A DNA stretch of 64,000 nt. Source: Myxococcota bacterium (lineage in GTDB: Bacteria; Myxococcota_A; UBA9160; PR03). This document shows positions 25,808 through 55,156 of this stretch, in pieces (the stretch's first letter is position 1; each line of letters begins with the position of its first letter). The DNA is taken from positions 3,448 through 67,447 of the forward strand of contig DATJPY010000103.1 in NCBI GenBank assembly GCA_035506135.1, written 5' to 3'. The position numbers and the translations under genes were made by a program. The notes under the pieces were generated by a model. It was not told the DNA's origin. It saw only the letters and a list, made by a program, of their open reading frames with translations, and ran no database searches.

Positions 25808-27280
25808 ATGCGTTCTCGGTGGACGGCCACATTGTTGGCCTTCGCCATGTTGGCCTTCGTTGGGCTCGCGCCGTCGGCCAGGGCGGACGACGACAGCACC
25901 CAGGCCCAGCTCAAGACGATGCAGGATCGCATGCAGTCGATGGAGGACCAGCTCCAGGCTGCGAACAAGCGCGTCGACGAGCAGCAGGATCTGATCCAGC
26001 GCTCGGGTCTCTCGGAGACACGCGGGGCGAGCTCGGGTCTGCCCGGCTTCCTCGGCTCGCTCGACATCAGCGGGTGGGCGGCCGCCAGCTACTTCTACAA
26101 CGTCAACGACCCGAACGACCACCAGAACCCGGACGGCGGCCTCAAGAACACCAACATCGGCTACTCGGGGCAGAACGGCTCGGTGAACGGCGACAACGCG
26201 AATGCACCGGGCTTCTATCCGCTGCACCCGGACCAGAACAGCTTCTCGCTCGACCAGCTCTGGTTCGGGATCGAGCGGAAGATCAGCGAGGAGAACCGCG
26301 CTGGCTTCCGCGCCGACATCCTGTACGGCACGACGGCGGGGCTGCTGCCGAACAGCTCGTTCAACGGCAACCGCGCGAGCTTCGACTCGACGTCGTCGTT
26401 CTACGTGCAGCAGGCCTACATCCAGTACCTCGCGCCGATCGGCAGCGGCATCACCGTGAAGGCCGGCAAGTTCGAGACGCTGCTGGGCGTGGAGACGGCC
26501 GAGACGATCTACAACTGGAACATCACGCGCGGCACGATCTGGACGCTGTTCGAGCCGATCAACCACGTCGGCGTGTCGATCGGCGGACCGATCGGCGACT
26601 CCGGCTTCGACTGGACACTCGCGGGTGTCAACGGCTTCGCTCCGGACTCGCCCGACATCAACGACGGCAAGTCGGTGATGGGCCACCTGGGCTGGAGCAA
26701 CAAGATGTTCACGGTTGCGCTGAACGGCATCTGGGGCCCCGAGAAGTTCGCCAACGACGGGAGCCAGAACGGCGTTGCCAACGCCTACATCAAGTGGAAC
26801 CCGACCGACCGCTTCGGGATGTACCTGAACGGCGACTACGCCTGGCAGCAGGGCACGTCGGCAGCCGCGTGGGGCCTCTCGCTGGCGGGCCGCTATGGGA
26901 TCACGGACAAGACCGGGGTCGCACTGCGGGCCGAGTACGCGCAGGACGTGAGGGGCTTCTTCGGCTTCACGGGCTGCGGCAGCAGCTTCGGCAATCCCGC
27001 GGATCCCGCCAACCCCAACTTCACAGGCGGTCCGAACGCCTGCGGCGCAACGGGGATCCAGACCTACGGCATCACGCTCACGGTCGACCATCAGCTCACC
27101 GACCAGCTGATGATCCGCGGCGAGGGTCGCTACGACTGGATCGGGAAGGACAACGGCAAGCAGGACGAGTTCTTCCAGAACAACCGCTACGACCTGGCGG
27201 GCAGCAAGAGCATGCCGAACAACCAGCTCGTGTTCGGCGTCGAGCTCGTCTACAACTTCAACAAGTTCGGGGCCCAGTAG
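25808..27280 (+). CDS. Outer-membrane beta-barrel porin with N-terminal coiled coil (paralog 2)
   Basis: Internal ATG after GAAGGAGGGG; the track ORF starts at 25784. Collinear with paralog 1, with most residues identical by eye. Differences cluster in two loop segments. Confidence 0.8.
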   Translation: MRSRWTATLLAFAMLAFVGLAPSARADDDSTQAQLKTMQDRMQSMEDQLQAANKRVDEQQDLIQRSGLSETRGASSGLPGFLGSLDISGWAAASYFYNVNDPNDHQNPDGGLKNTNIGYSGQNGSVNGDNANAPGFYPLHPDQNSFSLDQLWFGIERKISEENRAGFRADILYGTTAGLLPNSSFNGNRASFDSTSSFYVQQAYIQYLAPIGSGITVKAGKFETLLGVETAETIYNWNITRGTIWTLFEPINHVGVSIGGPIGDSGFDWTLAGVNGFAPDSPDINDGKSVMGHLGWSNKMFTVALNGIWGPEKFANDGSQNGVANAYIKWNPTDRFGMYLNGDYAWQQGTSAAAWGLSLAGRYGITDKTGVALRAEYAQDVRGFFGFTGCGSSFGNPADPANPNFTGGPNACGATGIQTYGITLTVDHQLTDQLMIRGEGRYDWIGKDNGKQDEFFQNNRYDLAGSKSMPNNQLVFGVELVYNFNKFGAQ

Positions 27281-27455: not shown

Positions 27456-27471
27456 TGGCACGCCCCTTGCT
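27456..27471 (+). promoter_or_regulatory. sigma54 promoter TGGCAC-GCCCC-TTGCT (glnB-glnA)
   Basis: Perfect consensus -24/-12, 177 nt upstream of the glnB ATG. Confidence 0.8.
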
Positions 27472-45949: not shown

Positions 45950-46894
45950 CTGCGCCCGGTCCTGCTCGACACCGACATCGGCAGCGACGTCGACGACGCG
46001 CTGGCGCTGGCGGTGATCCTGGCGGAGCCCGACGCGCTCGAGCTGGTCGCCATCACGACGGTGTCGGGCGACACGCGGCTGCGCGCGCGCATCGCCGCGC
46101 GCCTGCTCGGCGTCGCCGGGCGGACGCGCGTCGACGTCTGCGCGGGCGAGGAGGCGCCGCTCCTGCGCGGGCGCGACCGCTTCGTCTGGTTCGGGCACGA
46201 GGGCAAGAGCCTGCCGGACGGGCCCGACGCCGGGCTCTCGGACGAAGGGGCGCCGGAGCGCATCGTGCGCGCCGCGCGCGAGCGCCCCGGGCTCGAGCTC
46301 GTCGCCATCGGCCCCCTCACGAACGTGGCGCGCGCGCTCGCGCTCGACCCGAAGCTCCCCGAGCGGGTCGGCGGCCTCAGCGTGATGGGCGGCCACGTGC
46401 GCGAGGTGCGCCTCGGGGGCAAGGCGCTGCCGCACGGCATCGACTACAACCTCTGCTCCGATCCCGAGGCGACCGTCGCGGTGCTGGGGGCCGGCTTCCG
46501 CACGACGCTGGTCACCGCCGACGTGACCCTGCAGACCTGGATGGGACCGGCCGACGTCGAGCGCCTCGCCGGCCGCGGCCCGCTGGCGCGCGCGCTCGTC
46601 CCGATGATCCGGACCTGGTCGGCTGTACAGCGCCGGCTCTTCGAGTCGTGGGGCGGACCCGAGCCCGACGACTTCGCGGCGTTCCTGCACGATCCGCTCA
46701 CCGCGCTGGCGCTCGTCGATCCGAGCCCCCTCCACTTCGAAAGGCTCCGCATCGTGCCGACGGTCCAGGCCGGCATCCTGCGCACCCTCGAGGCGCCGGC
46801 CGGCGGCGCGGTCGGCAGCGAGATGCAGGTGGCGACCGGCGTCGACGCGGCCGCCGCGCGCCGCGCGATCGTCGACCGCCTGGCCGCGCGCTAG
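45950..46894 (+). CDS. Nucleoside hydrolase (IUNH family); start uncertain (CTG 45950 or GTG 46013)
   Basis: The in-frame conserved N-terminal Asp cluster LLDTDIGSDVDDALALAV lies upstream of the first canonical start, GTG 46013. The rest is IUNH-like (AIGPLTNVA). Confidence 0.75.
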   Translation: MRPVLLDTDIGSDVDDALALAVILAEPDALELVAITTVSGDTRLRARIAARLLGVAGRTRVDVCAGEEAPLLRGRDRFVWFGHEGKSLPDGPDAGLSDEGAPERIVRAARERPGLELVAIGPLTNVARALALDPKLPERVGGLSVMGGHVREVRLGGKALPHGIDYNLCSDPEATVAVLGAGFRTTLVTADVTLQTWMGPADVERLAGRGPLARALVPMIRTWSAVQRRLFESWGGPEPDDFAAFLHDPLTALALVDPSPLHFERLRIVPTVQAGILRTLEAPAGGAVGSEMQVATGVDAAAARRAIVDRLAAR

Positions 46895-47649
46895 CGGCTC
46901 GGCACGACCGCGCTCGAGCGCGCTTCGTCGCGCTTCGGCGCGAAGAGCCAGGCCGCCAGAACGCCGAGCAGGTAGAGCAGGCACATCGGCACCGCGAGCA
47001 GGGTCTGGCTCACCCAGTCCGTCGAGGGCGTCAGCACGGCACCCAGGATGAAGCAGATCAGCACGGCGTACGGGAAGCCGCGCAGCAGGCGCTTCACGTC
47101 CACGATGCCGGCCGAGGCCAGAAAGAAGACGACCACGGGTAGCTCGAAGGCTGCGCCGAAGGCCAGGAACATGCTGGTCGTCATGCCGAAGACCTCCTCC
47201 ATGGTCCAGGCCGCCTGCACGAACTCGCTCTCGAAGTTGCCGAGGAAGGCGAACATCAGCGGAAACACGAACGTGTGTCCGAAGAATGCGCCCGAGACGA
47301 AGAGCACCGTCGAGACCACCACGAAGGGAACCGCGAACCGCTTCTCCTTCGGATAGAGCCCCGGTGCGATGAAGGCCCAGGCCTGCCAGAGGATCACGGG
47401 CAGCGCGAGCACGAAGCCGGCCAGCGCGGCGCCCTTCATGTAGGTGACGAAGATCTCGCTCGGCGCGATCGCCTGCAGGTGGCCCTTGGTTCCGAGCGCC
47501 GCGACCGCCGGCCGCAGCAGGTAGCGGAAGATCTCCTCCTTGTAGGTCCAGGCCAGCGCGACGCCGACGCCCCAGGCGAGGATCGAGCGGATCAGTCGGG
47601 TTCGGAGCTCGGCGAGGTGCTCCGTCAGCGGAAGCCGCGTCTCGTCCAT
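46891..47649 (-). CDS. tatC: Twin-arginine translocase subunit TatC
   Basis: Contains LTEHLAELRTRLI, six TM helices, and PSTDWVSQ. Confidence 0.93.
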   Translation of the reverse strand: MDETRLPLTEHLAELRTRLIRSILAWGVGVALAWTYKEEIFRYLLRPAVAALGTKGHLQAIAPSEIFVTYMKGAALAGFVLALPVILWQAWAFIAPGLYPKEKRFAVPFVVVSTVLFVSGAFFGHTFVFPLMFAFLGNFESEFVQAAWTMEEVFGMTTSMFLAFGAAFELPVVVFFLASAGIVDVKRLLRGFPYAVLICFILGAVLTPSTDWVSQTLLAVPMCLLYLLGVLAAWLFAPKRDEARSSAVVPSR

Positions 47650-47952
47650 CTAGCTCGAGCGCGGCTCGGCGGGCCTCGCGTCGGCGTGGGCGGCCGGTGC
47701 GGCCGTGGGCTCCGCCGGGGCCTGGCTCGCCGCGGAGAGCTGCGTGGGAGCCTGCGGTGCGGTCTCCGCCGGCCGCCCGCTCGGCTCGCGCATCGCCTCG
47801 TCGAAGGTGGAGCGCAGGTCCGTCGAGGCGCGCCGGAACTCGGCCATCGCCTTGCCGAGCGAGCGGGCCAGCTCGGGCAGGCGCGTCGGACCGAAGATGA
47901 TCAGCGCGACGACCAGGATCACGAGCAGCTCGGACATGCCGATGCCGAACAT
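47650..47952 (-). CDS. tatA: Twin-arginine translocase TatA/E-family protein
   Basis: Contains [42 protein letters not shown]. Its stop abuts the tatC ATG. Confidence 0.9.
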
Positions 47953-48036
47953 GGAGGGGCGACCATGGGGAGGGACCTCGCCGCGAGCGGAGGCCCGAAT
48001 CTAGCCGTGCGGAGGGGCGAGCGCCGGTCGCTCCCG

Positions 48037-48435
48037 TCAGGCGGCGGCGACGGCCACCCTGGGCGCCCGCCGCGGCTCCTGCTCCCGCTCGGCCAGCAGC
48101 GCCACCCCCATGCGCGCCTCCCCGACCCGCCCTCGGGCGCTCCAGACGACCCGCGCGAGCGACTCCAGAGAAGGCCGGCCGTCGACGCTGCGCACGATCA
48201 CCCGAAGCAGGGTTCCGACCGCGGCGGCCTCCTCTCCGCGCAGGCACGCGCCCGCGGGCGAGAGGTCGAGGGTGAAGCCCGCCTGCCACCGCTCGTCCCG
48301 ATGGGCGCGCGGAAACGGCGCGTACTGCACCAGCCGGACGGTCGTCTCCCGCCGCACCTTGCGGAGGGATCGCGACCCCGCGGAGCTCCCGCTGCTCCCG
48401 AAATCCAGCGAGAGCTGGCCCCCTGATTCGAGCAT
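48037..48435 (-). CDS. PilZ-domain protein (candidate c-di-GMP receptor)
   Basis: ATG at 48435, 14 nt after the HD-GYP gene stop. Contains the RxxxR-type RKVRRETTVR and the DxSxxG motif DLSPAGA. Confidence 0.75.
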   Translation of the reverse strand: MLESGGQLSLDFGSSGSSAGSRSLRKVRRETTVRLVQYAPFPRAHRDERWQAGFTLDLSPAGACLRGEEAAAVGTLLRVIVRSVDGRPSLESLARVVWSARGRVGEARMGVALLAEREQEPRRAPRVAVAAA

Positions 48436-48449
48436 CTCGTGCGCCCCCC

Positions 48450-49655
48450 TCAATGGATTTGCAGCGTCGACGGCGCGGCCGACTCCGGGTCCGCATCCGG
48501 CGATGTGATGGCGTCGGCGACCTGCTCCGGGTCGACGTCGCAGGCCCCGCTCTCGACCAGCGCGAGCAGCTCCTTCACCAGCCCCGGGTCGAACTGCGCG
48601 CCCGCCTCGCGCCGCAGCTCGGCGACGGCCGCGTTGTGCGTGAGCGCGCGCCGGTAGGGCCGGTCGCAGGTCATCGCATCGAACGCGTCGGCGAGGTGGA
48701 GGATGCGCGCGGCCAGCGGCGTGGTGTCGGCCGCCAGCCCGTCCGGGTATCCCTTGCCGTCCCAGCGCTCGTGGTGATGGCGGACGGCGGCGATGAGATC
48801 GTCGCTGACGCCGAGCGGTGTCAGTAGCCGGGCGCCGATGGCGGCGTGCCGCTCGACGGCCTTGCGCTCGAGCAGCGTGAGCGAGCCGCGCCGCGTGAGC
48901 AGCTCGCTCGGGACGCCGATCTTGCCGATGTCGTGCAGGAACGCCGCGATGCGCAGCGAGCGCTTCTCGGGTCCGGCCAGGCACAGGCGGTCCGCGAGCA
49001 GGCCGCTGTAGAAGGCGACGCGCCGCGCGTGGCCGCGCATGAAGGGATCCTGGACGCCGATCGTCTCCGCCAGCATCTCGAAGAACGGGAGCGCGCGCTC
49101 CGGATCGAGCGCCTGCAGCGGCTGGATGTCGGCCGCCGAGCGCGAGAGCAGCTCGCCCAGGTGGTTGCGCAGGCGGACGTCGCTCTGCACCAGGCTGACG
49201 ACGGCGGACACGTCGGTGTCACGCCCGACCGCGTCGCCGAGGTCCGCGAGGAAGCGCACCACGCGGCGGCGGCCGCGCCGTCGCGCCATCGCGCGATACA
49301 CGGCGGCCGTGACCGACACCACATCGAACGGCTTCTGCAGGTAGTCGGAGACGCCGCAGCGGATGCCCTCGGTCGCCGAGGCCAGGCTCCCGTGGCCGGT
49401 GATCACGATCACCTCGACGTCCGAGAAGTCGCTGCGGATCGCCCGCATCAGCTCCTCGCCCTGGACGCCGGGCATCGCCAGGTCGAGGGTCACGACGTCG
49501 ATCGGCGTCGTGCGCAGGAGCTCGAGCGCCTCGGCGCCGGTCGGCACCGCGAGCACGCGGTAGGCGGTCTGCAGGATCATCCGAAGCGATTCGCGGGGAC
49601 CACGCTCGTCGTCCACCACCAGCACGGTGGCGCGGGTCGAGCTCCGATCCGTCAT
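48450..49655 (-). CDS. Response regulator with HD-GYP domain (RpfG-like c-di-GMP phosphodiesterase)
   Basis: Internal ATG at 49655 after GGGGAGGTG. REC domain VLVVDDE..TLDLAMPG. HD-GYP motifs HDIGKIGVP and HHERWDGKGYPDGL. Confidence 0.88.
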   Translation of the reverse strand: MTDRSSTRATVLVVDDERGPRESLRMILQTAYRVLAVPTGAEALELLRTTPIDVVTLDLAMPGVQGEELMRAIRSDFSDVEVIVITGHGSLASATEGIRCGVSDYLQKPFDVVSVTAAVYRAMARRRGRRRVVRFLADLGDAVGRDTDVSAVVSLVQSDVRLRNHLGELLSRSAADIQPLQALDPERALPFFEMLAETIGVQDPFMRGHARRVAFYSGLLADRLCLAGPEKRSLRIAAFLHDIGKIGVPSELLTRRGSLTLLERKAVERHAAIGARLLTPLGVSDDLIAAVRHHHERWDGKGYPDGLAADTTPLAARILHLADAFDAMTCDRPYRRALTHNAAVAELRREAGAQFDPGLVKELLALVESGACDVDPEQVADAITSPDADPESAAPSTLQIH

Positions 49656-49692
49656 CCGGCACCTCCCCGCTCGCGGCCGGGGAGCGCCCTCC

Positions 49693-49707
49693 GCAACCCG
49701 TGTGCCA
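49693..49707 (-). promoter_or_regulatory. sigma54 promoter TGGCAC-ACGGG-TTGC (HD-GYP/PilZ operon)
   Basis: The plus strand reads GCAACCCGTGTGCCA. Perfect -24/-12, 38 nt upstream of the ATG at 49655. Confidence 0.8.
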
Positions 49708-49810
49708 GCTCGCAACTGGAGCCGGCAAGTATCAGATAAACCCAAGGCGGGCCGGAGGAAATCAAACTCCGTTGCGGCTCCTGGATGAAGCACGGGTGAA
49801 ATGGCGAAAT

Positions 49811-49824
49811 GTTCCGGACGGAAC
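49811..49824. promoter_or_regulatory. Palindrome GTTCCGGACGGAAC (candidate UAS 1)
   Basis: GTTCC-N4-GGAAC, about 110 bp upstream of the sigma54 promoter at 49693-49707. Confidence 0.45.
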
Positions 49825-49879
49825 GACCCCGGAGGCGGATGCGGGCCAACCCCGCGATTCGGCGAAGATCCGCCTCGGC

Positions 49880-49893
49880 GTTCCGATCGGAAC
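49880..49893. promoter_or_regulatory. Palindrome GTTCCGATCGGAAC (candidate UAS 2)
   Basis: Perfect 14-bp palindrome, 69 bp centre-to-centre from UAS 1 and 7 nt after the stop of the activator gene. Confidence 0.45.
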
Positions 49894-49899
49894 GGAGCG

Positions 49900-51318
<1,419 letters not shown>

Positions 51319-51406
51319 CGGGCGCGGGGAGAGTAACACCCGCCGACCGCGACTTCGCAACGGCGCGCAGCGGTGCGAGCGATCGCGCTCGCGCGGGTGG
51401 ATTCTC

Positions 51407-53344
51407 CTACGCCGCGGGCAGCTCGACCAGGACGAGCGTCTCGCCCGACTCCGAGGACTCGATGCGGAACGAGCCGCCCTGCGCGCGCACGACGGACTCC
51501 ACGGCGACCACCGCCAACGTGTGCTCCGACAGCGACAGCGCGCGCTCGGCAGCGCCGGGGCCGCCGCGGAAGCGCAACAGGATGCGGAGGCGCGGGTCGC
51601 CGACTCCCGAGCCGGCCTGGTGTCGGGTGGCGACGTACAGGTCGCCGCGATCGGAGATCCAATCGAGCGCCTGCTCGAAGAGCAGCCCGAACGCGAAGCG
51701 GAGCTGGTCGGCGTCTCCGAGCGCGAGCGGGTGCTCGCGGTCGAGCTCCTCGAGCACGACCAGTCGCCGCTCCTGGATGCGGCCGCGCTGCCGCTCGAGC
51801 AGGTGCGCCAGCAGCGCCGACACGTCGATGGATCGCCGCTCGGGCGGGCCGAGCGAGCCGAGCCGCTCGAGCGTGTCGATCGCGGCCTCGATCCGGTGCG
51901 TGTCGACCTCGACGCGCTCGGCGAACATGCGGCGGAACTCGGGGTCGTCGAAGCGACCGCCCAGCATCTGGGTGAAGCTGCGGATCCCGACCAGCGGGTT
52001 CCCGACCTCGTGGGCGACCGCGCTGACGAGGCGGCGGAGGTCCGACGGGGGGGTTGGTTGCTGAGCTGCAGCACGTCCTGATGAACTTCGCTCGGCCTCG
52101 CCTCGCTGCGCGCGCCCTTCGGGCGCTTGCTGGGGATGATCCAGGCGGTCGGGCTGCCCCGGAGGCGACGGGGGCGATCCGGACTGCCCTGACGAGGGCG
52201 GGGGGGATTCGTCCTCCACCAGCTCGGCGACGAGCTCGGGGGCGAGGGGAGGGACCGGGTCGAAGCGGAGGTCGCCGGCACCGATCGGGTCCGAGCGGGT
52301 GGCGGCGAGGGTGCGGCGGCCGACCGCCTCCAGCTCGCGCAGGTTCCCGGGCCAGGCATGCGCGCGGAGGCGGGCGATGGCGTCGGGCGCGAACTGGCGG
52401 CCCCGCTCGCCGCGCGCGGCGCTCCACTCGGCGGCGAGCCCGGTGGCGACGCGCTCGATCGCGTCCGGCCGATCGCGCAGCGGCGAGAGGCTGATCTCGA
52501 GCCCGGCGAGCGCGCGCGCGAGCTCGGGGTCGAGCGGGTCCGGATCGAGGCCCGCAGTCGCCATCCAGCGCACGCGCAGCGCGGGGAGCGCGCCCGCCGG
52601 CGGCCCCAGCTCGATCCAGCTCCGGAGCTGTCGCTGCGCGCCGCGGGGCAGGTGGTCGATGTCCTCGATGCAGACGGTCGCGAGATCGCCGGCGCCCAGC
52701 TCGCCCGTCTCGGGTACGAGCCTCGCGAAGAGCGACCGCGCGTCTGCGGCGGCGAGCGCCGACACCGACGCGAAGGGCCCCGGCGCGTCGGCCGCGCTCA
52801 TCCAGTGGACGTAGCGGGCGACCAGGCCTCGGCCGCTCCCCGGCTCGCCGCGCACCAGGAGGGGGACGTCGCGGCGGGTGGGATCGATCGCGCCGAGCAG
52901 GGCAGACGGCTCCAGGTCGCCGAGCCAGCGCCGGATGCGCGCCGCGAGGGCGTCGCGGCGGCGCCGCTCGGTGAGCGCCGCGCCGGGCCGGCGCGCGAGG
53001 GCGGAGCGCACGCGCCGCCGCAGCTCGTTCGCGTCGGCGGTGGTGGAGATCAGGGTCGCGGGCAGCGCGTCGAAGAGCCGGCGCACTTCGTCGAGATCCC
53101 GCGGCGACGCCAGCAGCACCCACAGCGGGCGCGCGGCCGCGAGTCGCGGCGCGAGCCGGTGTGCCAGCTCGAGCTCCGCCTCGAAATCGTCCGTGACGCC
53201 GAGCAGGATCGCGCGCGGCGGCGGCTCGCGCTCCAGGGCGGCGGCGTCGCACGGATCGGAGGTGAGCGCATCCACGTCGCCGGCCAGGCGCCGGAGAGCG
53301 TCGCGCCAGCCGCCGTCGCGGTGGATGATCCAGAGTCTCGCCAT
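51407..53344 (-). CDS. Atypical sensor protein: receiver-like N-terminus, degenerate sigma54-type AAA+ domain, HisKA, divergent HATPase-like C-terminus
   Basis: ATG at 53344. AAA+ remnants LLVRGEPGSGRGLVARYVH (no Walker A Lys), CIEDIDHL and WPGNLRELE, with no GAFTGA. A Pro/Ser linker is followed by the H-box VSAVAHEVGNPLVGI. The C-terminus ..LLFEQALDW.. lacks a clear N, G1 or G2 box. Confidence 0.8.
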   Translation of the reverse strand: MARLWIIHRDGGWRDALRRLAGDVDALTSDPCDAAALEREPPPRAILLGVTDDFEAELELAHRLAPRLAAARPLWVLLASPRDLDEVRRLFDALPATLISTTADANELRRRVRSALARRPGAALTERRRRDALAARIRRWLGDLEPSALLGAIDPTRRDVPLLVRGEPGSGRGLVARYVHWMSAADAPGPFASVSALAAADARSLFARLVPETGELGAGDLATVCIEDIDHLPRGAQRQLRSWIELGPPAGALPALRVRWMATAGLDPDPLDPELARALAGLEISLSPLRDRPDAIERVATGLAAEWSAARGERGRQFAPDAIARLRAHAWPGNLRELEAVGRRTLAATRSDPIGAGDLRFDPVPPLAPELVAELVEDESPPPSSGQSGSPPSPPGQPDRLDHPQQAPEGRAQRGEAERSSSGRAAAQQPTPPSDLRRLVSAVAHEVGNPLVGIRSFTQMLGGRFDDPEFRRMFAERVEVDTHRIEAAIDTLERLGSLGPPERRSIDVSALLAHLLERQRGRIQERRLVVLEELDREHPLALGDADQLRFAFGLLFEQALDWISDRGDLYVATRHQAGSGVGDPRLRILLRFRGGPGAAERALSLSEHTLAVVAVESVVRAQGGSFRIESSESGETLVLVELPAA

Positions 53345-53390
53345 CGATCCTCGCCAGGAGCAGGGCACACGCGCCCGCCCGGGTCGCGGG

Positions 53391-53405
53391 GCAAGCGCCG
53401 TGCCA
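53391..53405 (-). promoter_or_regulatory. sigma54 promoter TGGCAC-GGCGC-TTGC (sensor/activator operon)
   Basis: The plus strand reads GCAAGCGCCGTGCCA. Perfect -24/-12, 47 nt upstream of the ATG at 53344. Confidence 0.75.
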
Positions 53406-53545
53406 GGCGCTGCGACCTCGCTGCAGCGTGCAGCCCGGCGGCAGCGCGGCCCGCAAGCGCGCACGGCCTCGCCGGAACGGTGAATCCCGCCGCCCGCCGC
53501 GCCACCGGCCGCGCGCGGCGGCGTTGGGGCAGTCTCCTATCCAAT

Positions 53546-55156
53546 GTGGGAAGGCCGCGTTCGCTGGTTGCCCGCGATTGTACCCTCTGCCAGAGTAGAC
53601 CCATCTCCCGCGCGGAGCCCGATTTGGCCGTCCTCTCCGCCGGACCCGAGGTCCGGCTCCGGAACTGGTTCGAGCGTCCCTACGACGACGCCATCGCTGC
53701 GGCCCGCACCTGCTACTCCCCGCGCGTGATCGACGCCGACGAGGTGACCGAGGGCCAGCGGCGCAACATCGGTCCGCTCACCTTCGAGGGCGGCCATCAC
53801 ACCGTCTACCAGCACGCGACGTTCGAGTTCTCGCTGTCGGGGATCTCGCGGCAGCTCGTCTGGTGCTTCCTCCACGCGTTTCCGTTCTACAACACGGAGC
53901 AGCAGAGCCAGCGCTACGTGCGGCTCGACGAGCCGCGCGCACACGTGCCGCCCGCGCTCGGCGGCGAGGCGCGGGCGCTCTTCGAGCGGAGCGTCGAGCA
54001 GGCGTGGGAGGCCTATCGGGAGCTGACCACCCGCCTCCGGCCCGTGACGCGCGCGCTCCTCGCCGAGCTCTGGCGGCTGGACCGCAAGAGCGAGGCATTC
54101 GGGCGCAACGTCGAGAAGGAGGCCGAGAAGAAGGCGATCGAGACCGCGCGCTACGTGATCCCGATCGCCTGCCACACCGCCATGGTCTACACCGTGTCGG
54201 GCATCGTGCTGCACCGCCTGCGGCGCATGGCGGCCGCGAGCGAGGCGCCCGACGAGGCCCGCGACGTGGTGGAGCGCATGCTCGCCGAGGTGGCGCGCGT
54301 CGACCCGGCGTTCTTCGTCGAGGTGGGCGAGCCGCCGCTGCGCGCGGAGGAGGCGCTCGAGAACCAGGTCGCGCCGCCGGGGCTCGGCGATGCGGCCGCG
54401 CTCGAAGCGTTCGACAAGTCGCTGGGAGGCCGCCGCTCGCGCCTGGTCGACTGGAGCCCGCGCGCGCCGCAGCTCGTGGCCGACGCGATCCGCCGCGTGC
54501 TCGCTCGGGCCGATCTCGACGACGCCGAGGCGCTGGCCCTGGCGCTCGACCCCGCGCGCAATCCGCACCGCCTCGACACGCTCAACGTGTCGGTCCACGT
54601 CCCGGTGATGCGCGCGCTGGAGCATGCCCACTACGCCTTCCGGAAGAAGCTCTCGCACGCGGCCGACTCCCAGGACCAGCGTCACCGGATGGTGTCTGGC
54701 TCGCGGCCGCTGCTCTCGCGCAGCGTGCCGGCCGCGGTCGACGTCGTCGAGCCCGAGCTGATCCGCGCCGATCCCGCCTGCCACGCGCGCTTCCGCGAGG
54801 CCGTGGAGGCCGCGTGGGACGCGCGCGCTCGCCTGCTGGCGCTCGGCGTCGCGCCCGAGCTCGCGCTCTACGTGCTCCCCAACGCGCTCGCGGTGCGCTT
54901 CGAGGAGTCGGGCTCGCTCCTGCACCTGCTCCACAAGTGGACGATGCGCACCTGCCTGAACGCACAGCGCGAGATCTACGAGGCGTCGATGGACGAGGTC
55001 GAGCAGGTGCGCGCGGTCCACCCCGAGCTGGCCCGACACGTCGGCCCGCCCTGCTTCGTGCGCGACGGGCTCGTTCGCCCGCGCTGCACCGAGGGCAGCC
55101 ACTTCTGCGGCATCCCGGTGTGGCGGAGCTTCCCGGACGTCGAGCGGCGGATCTGA
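53546..55156 (+). CDS. thyX: ThyX-family (FAD-dependent thymidylate synthase-like) protein with duplicated domain; start uncertain
   Basis: The first half has GGHHTVYQHATFEFSLSGISRQ..EQQSQRYV. The second half has HAHYAFRKKLSHAADSQDQRHRMVSGS and LNAQREI. The start is GTG 53546 or TTG 53624. Confidence 0.7.
   Translation: MGRPRSLVARDCTLCQSRPISRAEPDLAVLSAGPEVRLRNWFERPYDDAIAAARTCYSPRVIDADEVTEGQRRNIGPLTFEGGHHTVYQHATFEFSLSGISRQLVWCFLHAFPFYNTEQQSQRYVRLDEPRAHVPPALGGEARALFERSVEQAWEAYRELTTRLRPVTRALLAELWRLDRKSEAFGRNVEKEAEKKAIETARYVIPIACHTAMVYTVSGIVLHRLRRMAAASEAPDEARDVVERMLAEVARVDPAFFVEVGEPPLRAEEALENQVAPPGLGDAAALEAFDKSLGGRRSRLVDWSPRAPQLVADAIRRVLARADLDDAEALALALDPARNPHRLDTLNVSVHVPVMRALEHAHYAFRKKLSHAADSQDQRHRMVSGSRPLLSRSVPAAVDVVEPELIRADPACHARFREAVEAAWDARARLLALGVAPELALYVLPNALAVRFEESGSLLHLLHKWTMRTCLNAQREIYEASMDEVEQVRAVHPELARHVGPPCFVRDGLVRPRCTEGSHFCGIPVWRSFPDVERRI

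Follow-up and report, generated by a model that had tools for sequence, protein, structure and literature searches.

A putative sigma-54 enhancer-promoter unit between an NtrC-family activator gene and an HD-GYP/PilZ/Tat operon in uncultured Myxococcota

The upstream activating sequence (UAS) of NifA is TGT-N10-ACA; it is located at least 100 bp upstream of the promoter and its action is assisted by IHF (PMC2820453, PMC6296734). Here, we describe a comparable arrangement in a 64,000-nucleotide stretch of DNA from a Myxococcota bacterium (GenBank assembly GCA_035506135.1, contig DATJPY010000103.1, positions 3,448 to 67,447 of the forward strand), hereafter called the window, in which positions are counted from the first base. 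The element under study is the gap between the gene of an NtrC-family enhancer-binding protein (EBP) and the gene of a REC-HD-GYP response regulator. With a probability of roughly three in four, we consider this gap to be a complete sigma-54 enhancer-promoter unit, driven by the adjacent EBP through two palindromic sites (dyads).

As at the nif promoters controlled by NifA, the dyads have the outer geometry (C/T)GT-N10-AC(G/A), precede a GG-N10-GC promoter by 100 bp or more and are accompanied by an intervening IHF-like site; in about one third of the orthologous loci (e.g. L013, L029, L043 and L077 in the sample described below), the dyad literally reads TGT-N10-ACA. In contrast to NifA, which is a GAF-type activator, the activator here is a REC-type response regulator. 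Moreover, the inner TCC/GGA is fixed, the dyads stand 69 bp apart with a bend-like site between them, and the targets are genes related to cyclic di-GMP (c-di-GMP) and Tat rather than nif genes.

The locus also resembles the systems of NtrC (glnAp2), XylR (Pu) and AtoC/ZraR, with which it shares a REC-AAA+-HTH_8 activator and paired dyads upstream of a sigma-54 promoter. IHF assists looping at Pu and glnHp2. Unlike in these systems, the site is unrelated to the TGCACC-N5-GGTGCA of NtrC, the sigma-54 contact loop of the activator is GAFTDA instead of GAFTGA, the partner "kinase" is a degenerate chimera of an EBP and a histidine kinase, and the activator is not an orthologue of a named EBP. In the EBP regulons of Desulfovibrio vulgaris (PMC4641369), as here, EBP genes were found beside their own sigma-54 promoter and a palindromic UAS, and the assignments were likewise made by comparative inference; that bacterium belongs to a different phylum, and an association with Tat, HD-GYP or IHF is absent from the paper. 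In its organisation, the unit is a classical sigma-54 enhancer-promoter of the NifA/NtrC type, with a textbook mechanism and no new principle. Three things appear unusual: dyads that stand 69 bp apart around a bend-like motif, the connection with tat genes, and the degeneracy of the partner protein.

Promoter, dyads and activator gene

The elements of the gap, and the gene of the presumed dyad-binding protein, are the following.

49707-49693, minus strand: sigma-54 -24/-12 promoter TGGCACacgggTTGC (TGGCAC-ACGGG-TTGC), a GG-N10-GC element with extended consensus
49811-49824: proximal dyad, UAS-1, putative EBP site GTTCCGGACGGAAC, read on the minus strand as cGTTCCGTCCGGAACa; palindrome GTTCC-N4-GGAAC
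49880-49893: distal dyad, UAS-2, putative EBP site GTTCCGATCGGAAC, also given as cGTTCCGATCGGAACg; 6 bp past the EBP stop codon
49847-49859, minus strand: IHF-like motif AATCGCGGGGTTG at the midpoint between the dyads, matching WATCARNNNNTTR at 7 out of 9 positions
49736-49749, minus strand: IHF-like/TTR element ccTTGGGTTTA, the weaker of the two, some 30 bp 5' of the -24 element
49900-51318, minus strand: NtrC-family enhancer-binding response regulator (EBP), complete REC-AAA+-HTH, presumed to bind the dyads

The promoter combines the extended consensus with the orientation of the downstream gene and a short distance to it: 37 nt separate its last base from the ATG of the REC-HD-GYP gene at 49655. 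A first-pass annotation, made from the letters of this DNA alone, had described the same promoter with a gap of 38 nt. It had also placed both palindromes correctly, 69 bp apart, with distances from the promoter of about 110 and 180 bp; the dyad centres are about 112 and 181 bp from the GG of the -24 element, and UAS-1 lies 117 bp upstream of the promoter when measured start to start. The perfect dyad GTTCC-N4-GGAAC is found exactly twice in the window, where 0.02 copies are expected, and none of 100 shuffled sequences contained two. Similarly, the perfect promoter TGGCAC-N5-TTGC is present in three copies for 0.03 expected, the other two being at 53391-53405 (minus strand) and 27456-27470 (plus strand). 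No GTTCC dyads were found when looked for upstream of these two promoters.

Transcription is predicted to start near 49681, which would give a leader of about 26 nt. A Shine-Dalgarno sequence, GGAGG, was observed at 49662-49666, ahead of the ATG. Directly 5' of it, the leader contains the motif CGCGAGGC (49667-49675, minus strand), which was kept in most orthologues.

The EBP matched the Pfam families Response_reg, Sigma54_activat, AAA_lid_14 and HTH_8, and exhibited the acceptor aspartate, the Walker A and B motifs, a GAFTGA-type loop and a Fis-type helix-turn-helix (HTH) characteristic of the class. Orthologues of 63-90% identity kept residues D51, T81 and K101 of the receiver, the Walker A motif GESGTGKE and the Walker B motif FLDE, and the HTH recognition helix, NQTRAA-x-LGiTRRxLKLKxDRY, was invariant among them. 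The equivalog cutoffs of NCBIfam were not reached for any of the named orthogroups AtoC, NtrC, ZraR, NtrX, LuxO and the PEP-CTERM response regulator. The best family scores were obtained for AtoC (453.7 versus a cutoff of 714), NtrC (430.5 versus 558.6) and the PEP-CTERM response regulator, and the nifA model scored 364 versus 529 bits. The closest solved structures were those of LuxO, NtrC1, ZraR and NtrX.

The sigma-54 contact (L1) loop of the EBP (residues 214-219; 50661-50678, minus strand) reads GAFTDA, not GAFTGA. GAFTDA or GSFTDA was present in 10 of the 11 aligned EBP sequences, the remaining one, from L009, having GSFTGA. GAFTDA is a natural variant of GAFTGA, among those judged able to activate transcription, and has been reported in DVU2106 of Desulfovibrio vulgaris (PMC4641369).

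Conservation of the elements and competing readings

To sample orthologous loci, the kinase-like protein encoded directly upstream of the EBP was used as a locus marker. A protein search gave 161 homologues, almost all from uncultured Myxococcota. Ten loci were retrieved in this way, independently of the DNA motif (L004, L008-L015 and L001; kinase-like identity 43-77%), L001 being the one true orthologue returned by a search of genome contigs with the same protein; L002 and L003 were rejected as unrelated paralogues. The L007 contig ends at the kinase-like gene and was informative for the promoter upstream of that gene only. In addition, metagenomes were scanned with the pattern GTTCC-N4-GGAAC-N85-110-TGGCAY-N5-TTGC, which matched at least 119 stretches. 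Among the 119 matches listed, 27 were orthologous and follow closely on the end of an EBP gene (57-100% identity); one of these, L121, is the window's own sequence. Together, the 10 kinase-like-derived loci and about 22 from the scan make up 32 non-redundant orthologous loci. The ten have a common gene order, in which a divergent thyX-like gene is followed by the kinase-like and EBP genes, a gap of 230-255 nt, REC-HD-GYP and PilZ genes (both optional), tatA and tatC.

The promoter TGGCA[CT]-N5-TTGC followed the EBP gene in all ten kinase-like-derived loci, and also in the 32 non-redundant loci. In the former set, UAS-1 was perfect in seven loci and deviated at one position (GTTCG) in two; in L001 it deviated at two positions, and the proximal site GTACGCCGCGGAAC lies 116 bp upstream; degenerate GTAC..GAAC dyads stand at exactly 116 and 185 bp in that locus. 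Over the 32 loci, the UAS-1 arms cGTTCC and GGAACg were essentially invariant and the N4 spacer was free, while UAS-2 degenerated only as far as a GTTC-N6-GAAC core. A second dyad was found nearby in 19 of the 27 orthologous scan matches, compared with 4 of the other 92 listed.

The distance from UAS-1 to the promoter was either 103-107 bp (13 loci) or 112-117 bp (19 loci). That from UAS-2 to UAS-1 was 67-69 bp in 28 of the 32 loci and 79-81 bp in L013, L014 and L029; among the ten kinase-like-derived loci, UAS-2 was located 68-69 bp beyond UAS-1 in eight, and 79-80 bp in L013 and L014. Both spacings therefore shift by one helical turn, which is the signature of elements that need to face each other on the DNA. 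In their symmetry, their position within the 80-200 bp upstream of -24/-12, their conservation in 32 loci and their spacing steps of one turn, the dyads fit an EBP enhancer. The invariant arms, taken with the invariant recognition helix and the drifting N4, point to a site on DNA that is bound by a protein rather than to an RNA hairpin. The main argument for the EBP as that protein is that its HTH is invariant and that the dyads, also invariant, always adjoin its gene.

The elements are thus real and improbable by chance; in about 32 loci, their position, sequence and helical phase have been kept, along with an HTH that does not vary. The proposal of the first-pass annotation that the adjacent NtrC-family EBP drives the downstream genes through the dyads is strongly supported by this comparison (10 out of 10 loci, fixed phased distances, invariant HTH), and the EBP probably does so.

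In three loci, the distal dyad was observed within the last codons of the EBP gene (approximately 10455-10468 in L013 and 10475-10488 in L014; 9521-9534 in L001). In L013 and L014, the overlapping dyad codes for V-P-x-G-T, so the putative binding site and the coding sequence overlap.

A conserved motif, (A/T)ATC(a/g)N-N4-TTG, was found at the midpoint between the dyads in the 32 loci. The profile of matches to the IHF consensus peaked at this midpoint, with a mean of 5.47 out of 9 versus a background of 2.65, and reached at least 7 out of 9 in 12 of the 32 loci; the TT of the motif was nearly invariant (28 out of 32). A second IHF-like peak (4.25 versus 2.5) was located at -41/-40 from TGGCA, with the TT present in 22-23 of the 32 loci. 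In the window, the A/T-rich sequence GATTTCC (49757-49763) precedes this second element, for which there is an alternative match, TATCTGATACTTG, at 49726-49738. We infer that IHF may bind at these A/T-TTG motifs.

These elements can be assembled into the following mechanism. EBP dimers would bind, through their Fis-type HTH, to the two 16-bp dyads (c/t)GTTCC-N4-GGAAC(g/a). A bend at the IHF-like midpoint would set the dyads, 6.5 turns apart, side by side and so help assembly of the AAA+ ring. A second bend or loop, at the weaker IHF-like site between UAS-1 and the promoter, would deliver the ring to the closed complex of the sigma-54 holoenzyme at TGGCAC-N5-TTGC. Upon phosphorylation of D51, ATP hydrolysis would open the promoter, and REC-HD-GYP, PilZ and, by read-through, tatA-tatC would be transcribed.

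Several observations weigh against a unit driven in this manner by the adjacent EBP. A dyad spacing of 69 bp corresponds to 6.5 helical turns, so that, without a bend in the DNA, the dyads would face opposite sides of the helix, whereas the classic sites of NtrC and XylR are 2-3 turns apart. The window's own IHF-like sites are moderate, the first matching at 7 out of 9 positions and the second being poor, and ihf genes are absent from the window, their presence in the genome being assumed. The same applies to rpoN, which is absent from the window and assumed to be present in the genome; three perfect promoters and an EBP gene within 64 kb imply it indirectly. Dyads of the same type are found near EBPs with different HTHs, so the dyad alone does not specify the EBP. 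Finally, the tatAC genes may have their own promoter, independent of the sigma-54 promoter and near-leaderless in some loci.

The alternative that survives best, which we nevertheless regard as unlikely, is that the promoter is real and the dyads are bound by another regulator, either a different EBP or a dimer of the Crp/Fnr type. FNR sites share the 5-N4-5 layout of the dyads. The kinase-like/EBP operon has a sigma-54 promoter of its own without dyads, which implies at least one further activator input, and in L131, L134 and L079, which come from other phyla, dyads of the same type lie beside EBPs with quite different HTH sequences. In every orthologue of the present locus, however, the dyads are tied to the 3' end of the EBP gene, even overlapping its last codons in three loci, and the EBP HTH is invariant wherever the dyads are. 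Their phased positions, 100-190 bp upstream, fit an enhancer and not a class I or class II site for an activator of sigma-70 promoters, and no sigma-70-like promoter was detected; the search for such promoters, for intrinsic terminators and for known RNA families covered 46500-54000 and returned none of the three.

The loci of other phyla came from the scan. The 92 non-orthologous matches listed covered all GC contents and were mostly due to chance, and no further regulon member of the EBP was identified among the matches listed. Some of them were clearly real enhancers of other EBPs, on unrelated low-GC contigs and with TGTTCC-N4-GGAACA dyads. L134 (approximately 650-810 of the oriented copy) contains an EBP gene, two dyads 21 bp apart, a sigma-54 promoter and a tctC-like gene; L131 (3240-3365) has a similar layout; and in L079 (4259-4374), a divergent AcoR-like EBP gene lies beside an alcohol dehydrogenase (adh) gene. 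L088 (1071-1200), a short contig without gene context, has a sigma-54 promoter preceded by three perfect copies of TGTTCCACGTGGAACA. The dyads of these four loci were present in two or three copies, spaced 21 or 41-42 bp apart. GTTCC-N4-GGAAC thus seems to be a recurrent class of EBP enhancer that is used elsewhere too; in the literature searched, no relevant report of the dyad sequence was found.

Other matches were discarded as regulon candidates: L018 and L074 correspond to repetitive coding sequence, and contigs of the L120 type to DnaA-box regions. The latter form a recurrent contig (L120, 78-300; also L017, L044, L086, L091 and L111) with a GC content near 0.44, in which three DnaA-box-like TTATCCACA repeats are followed by three tandem sigma-54-like promoters, TGGCACAGATATTGC, TGGCACAGGAATTGC and TGGCATGATTATTGC.

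Another reading places the function of the dyads in RNA, together with a hairpin that lies between them.

49832-49876, minus strand: nested hairpin GAGGCGGAT...ATCCGCCTC, enclosing GCGGG-gttgg-CCCGC

The EBP mRNA would carry, at its 3' terminus, a stem-loop made up of the dyads and hairpin, which would act as a terminator without a U tract, as a stabiliser or as a processing site. The segment directly follows the EBP stop codon, and the 95 nt from 49805 to 49899 fold to -49.5 kcal/mol (z = -2.7), with one dyad paired to the other. High-GC bacteria often terminate without U tracts. This strong fold is due to pairing between the two identical dyads, and it comes free, since two copies of any palindrome are mutually complementary. 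The hairpin itself was present as the first-pass annotation had proposed, ending at 49876 and not 49875, and the inter-dyad segment that carries it had a folding energy of -28.4 kcal/mol (z = -1.06) in the window. It is not conserved among the loci: over the 32 orthologous spacers, the median z was 0.06 and only one locus fell below -2. The hairpin was accordingly rejected as a functional part, being lineage-specific, and it matched neither the terminator consensus nor an Rfam family. Furthermore, the dyad arms never covary, being either invariant or asymmetrically degraded while the N4 "loops" drift, and phasing to the promoter would be meaningless for an RNA element. We therefore consider a role in RNA quite improbable.

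Lastly, although about 88 of the 92 non-orthologous dyad-plus-promoter matches listed look like chance, a coincidence or a dispersed REP/MITE-like repeat with no regulatory role is effectively refuted for this locus, as its only two dyad copies in 64 kb both lie at the EBP-HD-GYP gap and as their position and phase were kept while the flanking proteins diverged to about 43% identity.

Target operon and partner protein

The genes on either side of the enhancer-promoter unit and their further promoter elements are listed below.

48450-49655, minus strand: REC-HD-GYP response regulator, putative c-di-GMP phosphodiesterase (Pfam; HDIGK and HHERWDGKGYP intact)
48037-48435, minus strand: PilZ-domain protein with RxxxR and DxSxxG motifs
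47996-48004, minus strand: -10-like element CTAGATTCG (TAnnnT) in the 84-nt gap before tatA
47952-47650, minus strand: tatA/B, co-directional with the operon
47649-46891, minus strand: tatC, co-directional with the operon
51407-53344, minus strand: kinase-like partner "sensor", consisting of a pseudo-REC, a degenerate sigma-54-type AAA+, a DHp and a CA-like domain
53391-53405, minus strand: another perfect sigma-54 promoter, TGGCACggcgcTTGC, 46 nt ahead of the kinase-like gene

Along the minus strand, the kinase-like and EBP genes are followed by a gap of 244 nt, REC-HD-GYP, PilZ, a gap of 84 nt, tatA/B and tatC; beyond tatC lies a convergent nucleoside hydrolase gene. REC-HD-GYP, the first gene of the target operon, was syntenic in most orthologous loci. 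The order PilZ-tatA-tatC was also kept in most, L001 being without PilZ, and tatA-tatC kept their synteny with the operon wherever the contig extended far enough. HD-GYP was missing in L014, L021, L034, L043, L118 and L001, with the promoter and dyads persisting in all six. In L001, which has neither HD-GYP nor PilZ, a leader of 307 nt precedes tatA, and tatA-tatC are the sole downstream genes.

The first-pass annotation had named the c-di-GMP genes as the target. HD-GYP and PilZ genes indeed lie downstream, but the operon continues into tatA and tatC, and the promoter persists where HD-GYP and PilZ are lacking. Since the promoter and dyads persist without these two genes, the target is more aptly called an operon that ends in tatAC, with the c-di-GMP genes as frequent front-end cargo. 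The tatAC genes are presumably co-transcribed with them. In each of the orthologous loci inspected, L001 among them, the -10-like element CTAGATTCG stands 6-45 nt ahead of the tatA start codon; it would be part of the separate tatAC promoter considered above.

A broader interpretation, which we hold to be doubtful, is that the conserved output of the module is the Tat machinery itself. HD-GYP and PilZ would then couple c-di-GMP to the expression or activity of Tat, and the pseudo-kinase chimera would exert control, perhaps by dephosphorylating the EBP or by co-assembling with it. In the literature searched, we found no paper linking sigma-54, or c-di-GMP/PilZ, to tat genes.

The kinase-like protein did not have the full set of features of a canonical histidine kinase. 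The receiver aspartate is replaced by glycine (LLGV), the Walker A lysine is replaced by arginine (GxGR), and there is no GAFTGA motif; the sole invariant motif is that of the HisKA domain, H445-E-x-x-N-P-L. HATPase_c was not matched even at E <= 10, and the N, G1 and G2 boxes were not visible in the alignments. In a confident AlphaFold2 model (pLDDT of 85), REC-like, AAA+, DHp and CA-like domains were distinguished; the modelled fold of the N-terminal 400 residues appeared similar to NtrX, NtrC1 and VpsR, and that of the C-terminal 220 residues to DivL, RetS and HK853. Rather than an autokinase, the protein may be a phosphatase, a partner in phosphotransfer or a scaffold.

The promoter TGGCACggcgcTTGC, upstream of the kinase-like gene, was kept in 11 out of 11 orthologous loci. 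No GTTCC-N4-GGAAC dyads were found upstream of it, either in the window or in the orthologous loci. The operon of the kinase-like and EBP genes therefore has its own sigma-54 promoter without dyads, and the cassette, which the first-pass annotation took to be self-contained, is not fully so; the apparent catalytic degeneracy of the "kinase" speaks against it as well.

Further sequences were recorded outside the unit. Between the thyX-like and kinase-like genes lie TTGGATAGgagacTGCC (53528-53544, minus strand), a degenerate GG-N10-GC, and the near-palindrome CTCTGGCAGAG (53585-53595, minus strand), both kept in most orthologues. The third perfect sigma-54 promoter of the window, TGGCACgccccTTGC (27456-27470, plus strand), is intergenic and follows a gene that ends at 27280.

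Overall, the analysis provides a testable cis-regulatory map of an uncharacterised two-component/sigma-54 circuit, in which the promoter, the dyads, the probable bend sites and the rules of phasing are laid out. Its value lies in annotation, in regulon prediction and in drawing attention to an odd partner protein. Among uncultured Myxococcota of soils and sediments, the circuit is widely distributed; it is tied to c-di-GMP turnover through HD-GYP and PilZ, and possibly to the Tat translocase.

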